From the NCBI RefSeq assembly GCF_030384885.1, contig NZ_CP128613.1: a stretch of 64,000 nucleotides of DNA. The stretch is one strand, 5' to 3'. Shown one piece after another: positions 29,861 to 30,542 of the stretch. The position numbers and the translations under genes are program-made. The DNA is from Escherichia coli (GTDB lineage Bacteria > Pseudomonadota > Gammaproteobacteria > Enterobacterales > Enterobacteriaceae). Below the pieces are notes generated by a model, which was given only the letters and a program-made list of their open reading frames with translations, was not told the DNA's origin and did no database searches. The stretch's first letter is position 1; the number at the start of each line of letters is the position of its first letter.

Positions 29861-30542
29861 ATGAGAATTATAACAGCATTGCTGATGTCATTTTTTATTT
29901 TACCTGTTCATGCGGGTGTGGTCATCTATGGTACGCGTATTATCTATCCAGAAAAAACAGAGAAGTTCTCGTACAGTTAATGAATCAAAGCAAAAATGCC
30001 TCTTTGATTCAGGCATGGATCGATGATGGAAACACAACTATCGCGCCAGAAAAAATTCAGGTCCCATTTATTCTCACTCCGCCAGTAAGTCGTGTAGCAG
30101 GAGGTTCTGGCCAACAACTAAAAATAAAAAAATGCCAAACAATTTACCTCACAATAAAGAAAGTTTATTTTATCTAAATGTTATAGACATCCCTCCAAAC
30201 AACCCACAAAATGCTGGAAAAAACAAAATTAAACTTGCATTACAAAACCGTATAAAGTTATTTTGGCGTCCCGAAGGAGTAGCGCCGGTAGATAAAAAAA
30301 GCCTGTCTCAATTAACTATCAAAAAGAAAGATAATGCCATCTCAATAAACAATGAAACAGCGAACTGGATAACGATTACAACTATCAAAGCCCAAAATGT
30401 GAAAGTTAATAATGAAAGTATATTACTACCTCCATTTTCTAATAACGACATTACATTAAAAAATAACAACGCCTCAGAGTATGAACTAACGGTAGTTGAT
30501 GATTACGGGAATAATATCAATAGTAAAATCGCTGCAAAATAA
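29861..30542 (+). pseudogene. Periplasmic fimbrial chaperone (PapD/FimC family), disrupted by two frameshifts
   Basis: Chaperone-like sequence is split over three frames: 29861-29980 (MRIITALLMSFFILPVHAGVVIYGTRIIYPE…), 29980-30177 and 30132-30542; frame changes coincide with A6 (29952-29957) and A7 (30126-30132) homopolymer tracts. Confidence 0.7.

Follow-up and report, generated by a model that had tools for sequence, protein, structure and literature searches.

The subject of this analysis is a gene for a PapD-type fimbrial chaperone, on the plus strand at positions 29861-30542 of a 64,000-nucleotide stretch of Escherichia coli contig NZ_CP128613.1 (the window). The gene belongs to a chaperone-usher operon in which a subunit gene, the chaperone, an usher and a fourth gene follow one another, and the locus is flanked by rpsT and an espX1-like effector gene at one end and by nhaR/nhaA at the other. 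Where one chaperone gene would be expected, the window holds four short open reading frames (ORFs) spread over three frames. A tblastn search with the intact 227-amino-acid (aa) allele of ETEC4071 recovered three collinear pieces in three frames, 91-98% identical to the query: aa 1-35 at 29861-29965, aa 32-91 at 29953-30132 and aa 88-227 at 30120-30539. Because the pieces lie in three frames and the stretch measures 682 bp as against the 684 bp of intact alleles, the frame must shift exactly at two runs of A, an A6 run at 29952-29957 (site 1) and an A7 run at 30126-30132 (site 2), with one base lost and a -1 frameshift at each. Inserting one base at each site in a conceptual repair yields a 227-aa ORF free of internal stops. 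The original prediction, which had been made from the letters of the window, placed two frame switches at these runs and held that one-base changes at both would restore an intact chaperone. The tblastn search and DNA alignment confirm the first claim and the conceptual repair the second, and the three-frame alignment against an intact chaperone that had been proposed as a check puts the frameshifts at both runs.

DNA alignment with the intact alleles of O157 strain 4276, ETEC4071 and EC1 defines the two lesions at the level of single bases. At site 1 the change is from GAAAAAAAC to GAAAAAAC, that is from G-A7-C to G-A6-C, a plain contraction of a homopolymer that is in frame at seven. At site 2, ATAAGAAAAATG of the intact alleles is replaced by ATAAAAAAATG in the window. 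What has been lost is the lone G of AAGAAAAA, and the A7 run is thus the product of the lesion and not a pre-existing tract. This run could have arisen either by direct deletion of the G or by a G-to-A substitution followed by slippage from A8 to A7. The claim that both frameshifts fall exactly in poly-A tracts is therefore right as to position; as a statement of mechanism it holds for site 1 and fails for site 2, where a G was lost. The gene has a GC content of 35% and seven runs of at least six bases in its 682 bp, and in so AT-rich a sequence it is unsurprising that a lesion should fall in a run.

The intact allele has both domains of the PapD/FimC family (PF00345 and PF02753), with PapD_N at 19-141 (E 2.6e-40) and PapD_C at 163-219 (E 1.7e-06). 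Homology to this family extends over the whole length of the gene in the window, since the pieces jointly span aa 1-227. The two domains nonetheless do not share a single polypeptide of about 220-250 aa headed by a signal peptide, but are split into ORFs of 39, 65 and 136 aa. As judged from its sequence, the locus is a pseudogene of the PapD/FimC family and not a functional member. Public annotation had already recorded this: RefSeq labels the chaperone 'frameshifted', the gene is likewise annotated as frameshifted in all eight complete genomes whose chaperone allele is at least 96% identical to that of the window, and the annotation is correct.

The usher gene that follows survives as a remnant at 30555-32112 on the plus strand. 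Its reading frame is interrupted by a nonsense codon (30891-30893) and by a +1 insertion near 31029, an 894-bp deletion has left a junction at 32013|32014, and RefSeq labels it 'frameshifted; internal stop; missing C-terminus'. In the intact usher the Pfam domains PapC_N, Usher and PapC_C occupy aa 24-159, 176-733 and 743-804; aa 490-782 fall within the deletion, so that almost half of the Usher barrel and most of PapC_C are lost. Of 5426 complete genomes, exactly 8 have this junction. The chaperone of the window accordingly has no adjacent intact usher with PapC_N, Usher and PapC_C, as a functional chaperone-usher operon would, and the prediction from these lesions is that no fimbriae can be assembled from this locus.

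The operon has a counterpart in the OI-1 fimbrial cluster of O157:H7 EDL933 (z0020-z0025), which lies at the same position between rpsT/espX1 and nhaR, has the same gene order and contains a chaperone of about 92-93% nucleotide identity. OI-1 is described as a putative fimbrial island, and FmrA, the product of z0021, represses motility (reviews PMC10877973, PMC9387321). Our literature search returned only reviews of OI-1 and FmrA, and no paper describing the chaperone pseudogene was found in it. In O157:H7 strain 4276 the state of the operon is the reverse of that in the window: its chaperone and usher genes are whole, and the sole frameshift is in the fourth gene, where A7 has become A8. The gene frameshifted there, which the fourth gene of the window matches by position, is presumably z0020/z0021 of EDL933, as the gene order indicates. 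Intact operons also occur in E. coli sensu stricto, for example in ETEC4071 and EC1. In NCBIfam, the best matches of the intact chaperone are Salmonella StcB (330 bits, against a curated cut-off of 500) and PRK15218 (284 bits, cut-off 372), and that of the subunit is YehD (109 bits, cut-off 136). Since all of these scores fall below their cut-offs, we regard the operon as a related system of the OI-1 type and not as an equivalog of Stc or Yeh.

Several observations bear on the lineage that carries these lesions. The chaperone stretch is 100% identical to that of Escherichia coli 2013C-4282 (NZ_CP027579.1), and both 2013C-4282 and EC42405 are assigned to Escherichia cryptic clade I (PMC10100065). 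Alleles at least 96% identical to that of the window occur in only 8 of the 5426 complete genomes and a 92-93% identical allele in about 1200, a distribution that fits assignment of the strain to clade I. Over window positions 1-50000, aligned with 2683417-2733416 of NZ_CP027579.1, there are nine single-base substitutions and zero indels. One of the nine is at 31983, where the window has T and NZ_CP027579.1 and all relatives have C.

Comparison of the clade-I-type genomes separates an older lesion of the chaperone from a younger one. The loss of G at site 2 is common to all seven other genomes that were aligned, and the same seven share the 894-bp usher deletion with the window. Among the clade-I-type complete genomes the A6 of site 1, by contrast, is confined to the window strain and 2017-02-2CC, and the other five aligned genomes keep A7. 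Comparing tract lengths across isolates, as the original prediction had advised, thus gave a different answer at each site: the state of site 2 characterizes the clade-I-type allele family, whereas that of site 1 marks only a sublineage. The clade-I-type loci differ pairwise by 61-120 substitutions over about 3.8 kb, which implies that the lesions they share are old and that the operon has been drifting since. Individual relatives have additional lesions. MFDS1022581 has lost one further A at site 2, and in the chaperone of 2017-02-2CC, at the equivalent of window positions 30218-30228, a lone C between A runs (AAAAAACAAAA) has been lost to leave A10, a lesion of the same type as site 2 that may be real or may be a long-read homopolymer error. 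IS1 elements lie across the chaperone start in 24A16CRGN010 (locus 2788-3485) and inside espX1 in CPE35 (locus 2264-2961), and these insertions in the same island of other strains are further signs of decay at this locus.

The broken gene is also widely represented in public assemblies. Contigs drawn from the NCBI, ENA, JGI and Logan assemblies contain the exact broken ORFs, the 39-aa N-terminal ORF on 356 contigs, the 65-aa middle ORF on 398 (520 index blocks list it) and the 136-aa C-terminal ORF on 386, and strain TW10509 is among the sources. A 105-aa ORF, which corresponds to A7 at site 1, was found on 13 contigs and a 98-aa variant on 48. At the DNA level, five independent draft assemblies all agree with the window in the usher junction, in A7 at site 2 and in the frameshifted length of site 1. 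Three of the five have A6 at site 1; in the other two, GCA_965179085.1 and GCA_907165475.1, the G before the A6 run has become A, giving CCAAAAAAAAC (A8) with no change of length, so that the gene is still frameshifted. This A8 is best read as a substitution that extended the tract in an already dead gene. An exact look-up of ten repaired 227-aa chaperones (five haplotypes, each with Arg or Lys at site 2) among 15 billion proteins found none of them; the look-up demands exact identity, and a diverged intact clade I allele could escape it.

From these observations we conclude, with a probability of roughly 0.93, that the chaperone gene is truly a pseudogene, passed on by vertical inheritance within a chaperone-usher operon in decay, the counterpart of OI-1 in a cryptic clade I strain. 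Genuine pseudogenization was one of three explanations offered in the original prediction, and it is the one that shared, inherited lesions and a destroyed usher sustain. The alignments establish two steps: the G of AAGAAAAA disappeared from the chaperone, and 894 bp from the usher, in an ancestor of the clade-I-type allele, and the sublineage including the window strain later lost one A from the A7 tract that lies 174 bp upstream of site 2, the type of change made by replication slippage. With the usher gone, selection on the chaperone would have ceased, and more lesions would have accumulated, mostly at homopolymer runs in AT-rich DNA. Several points weigh against this account: either of the two ancestral events, the loss of G or the usher deletion, may have come first; the site 2 run has two conceivable origins, as described above; and the ORFs of the subunit gene and the fourth gene remain intact, a possible sign of residual use.

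In E. coli, Shigella and host-restricted Salmonella, many chaperone-usher operons are marked by frameshifts, by deletions and by insertions of IS elements. The operon described here decays in the same pattern as these cryptic enterobacterial fimbrial operons, with homopolymer frameshifts, a deletion and a nonsense codon, and with IS1 in relatives. We see no difference in kind; all that is particular here is the clade I lineage and the precise set of lesions. For the chaperone itself our analysis confirms the public annotation, which in itself matters little. Beyond this, the lesions in chaperone and usher serve as lineage markers of Escherichia cryptic clade I, and the locus offers a small worked example of an AT-rich fimbrial operon whose decay falls mainly at homopolymer runs. 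In practice this is useful only for quality control of annotation and, possibly, as a marker for clade I or its sublineage.

The intact state of the subunit and the fourth gene is the starting point for a more novel alternative, which we consider very improbable. According to it, these two genes have been kept in this clade I lineage since they are still useful without a chaperone and usher of their own: a related Yeh/Stc-type system elsewhere in the genome might handle their products, or the fourth gene might be an FmrA-like regulator of motility that mutation in its internal G7 and A7 tracts turns on and off, and low-level recoding at the A runs may supply a trace of chaperone. Recoding can also be considered as an explanation in its own right, and in that form it is slightly harder still to credit. 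Here the frameshifts would be bypassed by -1 ribosomal slippage of tRNA-Lys or by transcriptional slippage, so that some full-length chaperone is made, or the fragments would be useful themselves. Both lesions are -1 shifts in A runs at which a P-site tRNA-Lys could re-pair one base back, slippage at site 1 would regenerate the wild-type peptide PEKNREV, as read from the sequence, and the neighboring subunit and fourth gene remain intact. However, the zero frame at site 1 reads GAA AAA ACA, out of phase with the canonical slippery heptamer X XXY YYZ, and a programmed -1 site consisting of heptamer and stimulator is therefore not recognizable there, although no search for a stimulator was made. 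Two low-efficiency events would be required in series, and runs shorter than about nine bases give little transcriptional slippage. Even if some full-length product were made, the chaperone would have no assembly partner at a locus that lacks an usher. The extra lesions within the gene in relatives (the IS1 of 24A16CRGN010, the loss of an A in MFDS1022581 and that of a C in 2017-02-2CC) moreover indicate that the gene is under no constraint.

The original prediction had also raised the possibility that the A tracts form a phase-variable switch, in which slipped-strand mispairing would turn fimbrial assembly on and off. Contingency loci of this kind are known from surface genes of Neisseria, Haemophilus and Bordetella, where the tracts are poly-G or poly-C. 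The chaperone resembles them in that a coding homopolymer sets the frame and in that length variants recur at the tract between strains: site 1 has been hit repeatedly, with A6 here, A6 in two genomes and A8 in one genome of E. coli sensu stricto, and a +1 change from A8 to A9 in CPE35, and the A7 and G7 tracts of the fourth gene also vary between strains. It also differs from them. The runs are short (A6 and A7), and slippage at runs of this length is far slower than at the longer tracts on which known contingency loci depend. The off-variants are rare and fixed within lineages: when the 5426 genomes were queried for the main E. coli sensu stricto haplotype of the site-1 tract (A7 and A8 by exact queries of 88-89 nt with unmasked flanks, A6 by a 41-nt query), 755 genomes had A7 as against one with A8 and two with A6, a pattern that looks like rare mutation and not like switching. 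An 87-mer with the G deleted on E. coli sensu stricto flanks had no exact match. Restoring the chaperone would need two independent reversions, of which the one at site 2 concerns a lost G and not a repeat unit, and no repair of the chaperone could restore assembly by an usher with an 894-bp deletion, a stop and a frameshift. The double-off haplotype is fixed over hundreds of assemblies, no repaired version is on record, and the locus does not fit the definition of a phase-variable one, in which the repeat number of a simple tract sets the frame and close relatives show on as well as off lengths. A phase switch is thus very improbable, and the site-1 tract looks like a mutational hot spot that is hit occasionally and not like a switch.

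Least probable of all, and close to negligible, is the last of the proposed explanations, that both frameshifts are homopolymer errors of sequencing or assembly in a gene that is really intact: long-read assemblies can miscount homopolymers, each site, as the sequence now stands, is a run of A, and the extra loss of C leading to A10 in 2017-02-2CC could itself be such an error, yet the site 2 lesion is present in all eight independently sequenced complete genomes from six countries, the fragments of the A6 type occur on 356-398 contigs, the five drafts agree at both sites, 50 kb of the window set against the RefSeq record show 9 substitutions and no indel, and the neighboring 894-bp usher deletion cannot be a homopolymer error.

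Upstream of the chaperone, the major fimbrial subunit gene, YehD-like, at 29277-29810 on the plus strand is an intact 177-aa ORF annotated 'fimbrial protein'. Upstream of the operon, at 27561-29033 on the plus strand, lies the gene for an EspX1-like pentapeptide-repeat type III effector, annotated 'type III effector'. Its 490-aa product and the EspX1 of E. coli sensu stricto are only 72% identical in aa sequence; relatives have 483-aa versions, and towards the 3' end of the gene there is a run of C8 at 28980. The EspX1-like protein had no match in NCBIfam. Beside nhaA, a 426-aa ORF on the minus strand at 35505-36785 is annotated 'IS1/IS1595 family N-terminal zinc-binding domain-containing protein'.

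The adhesin-like fourth gene of the operon, at 32125-33084 on the plus strand, is an intact 319-aa ORF with 89% aa identity to the ETEC4071 protein. It contains a G7 tract at 32370-32376 and an A7 tract at 32416-32422, both of which differ in length between strains. The G tract is G6, G7 or G8 across the clade-I-type genomes, and the A tract is A8, and the gene frameshifted, in 2017-02-2CC, N96, 24A16CRGN010 and O157:H7 strain 4276.
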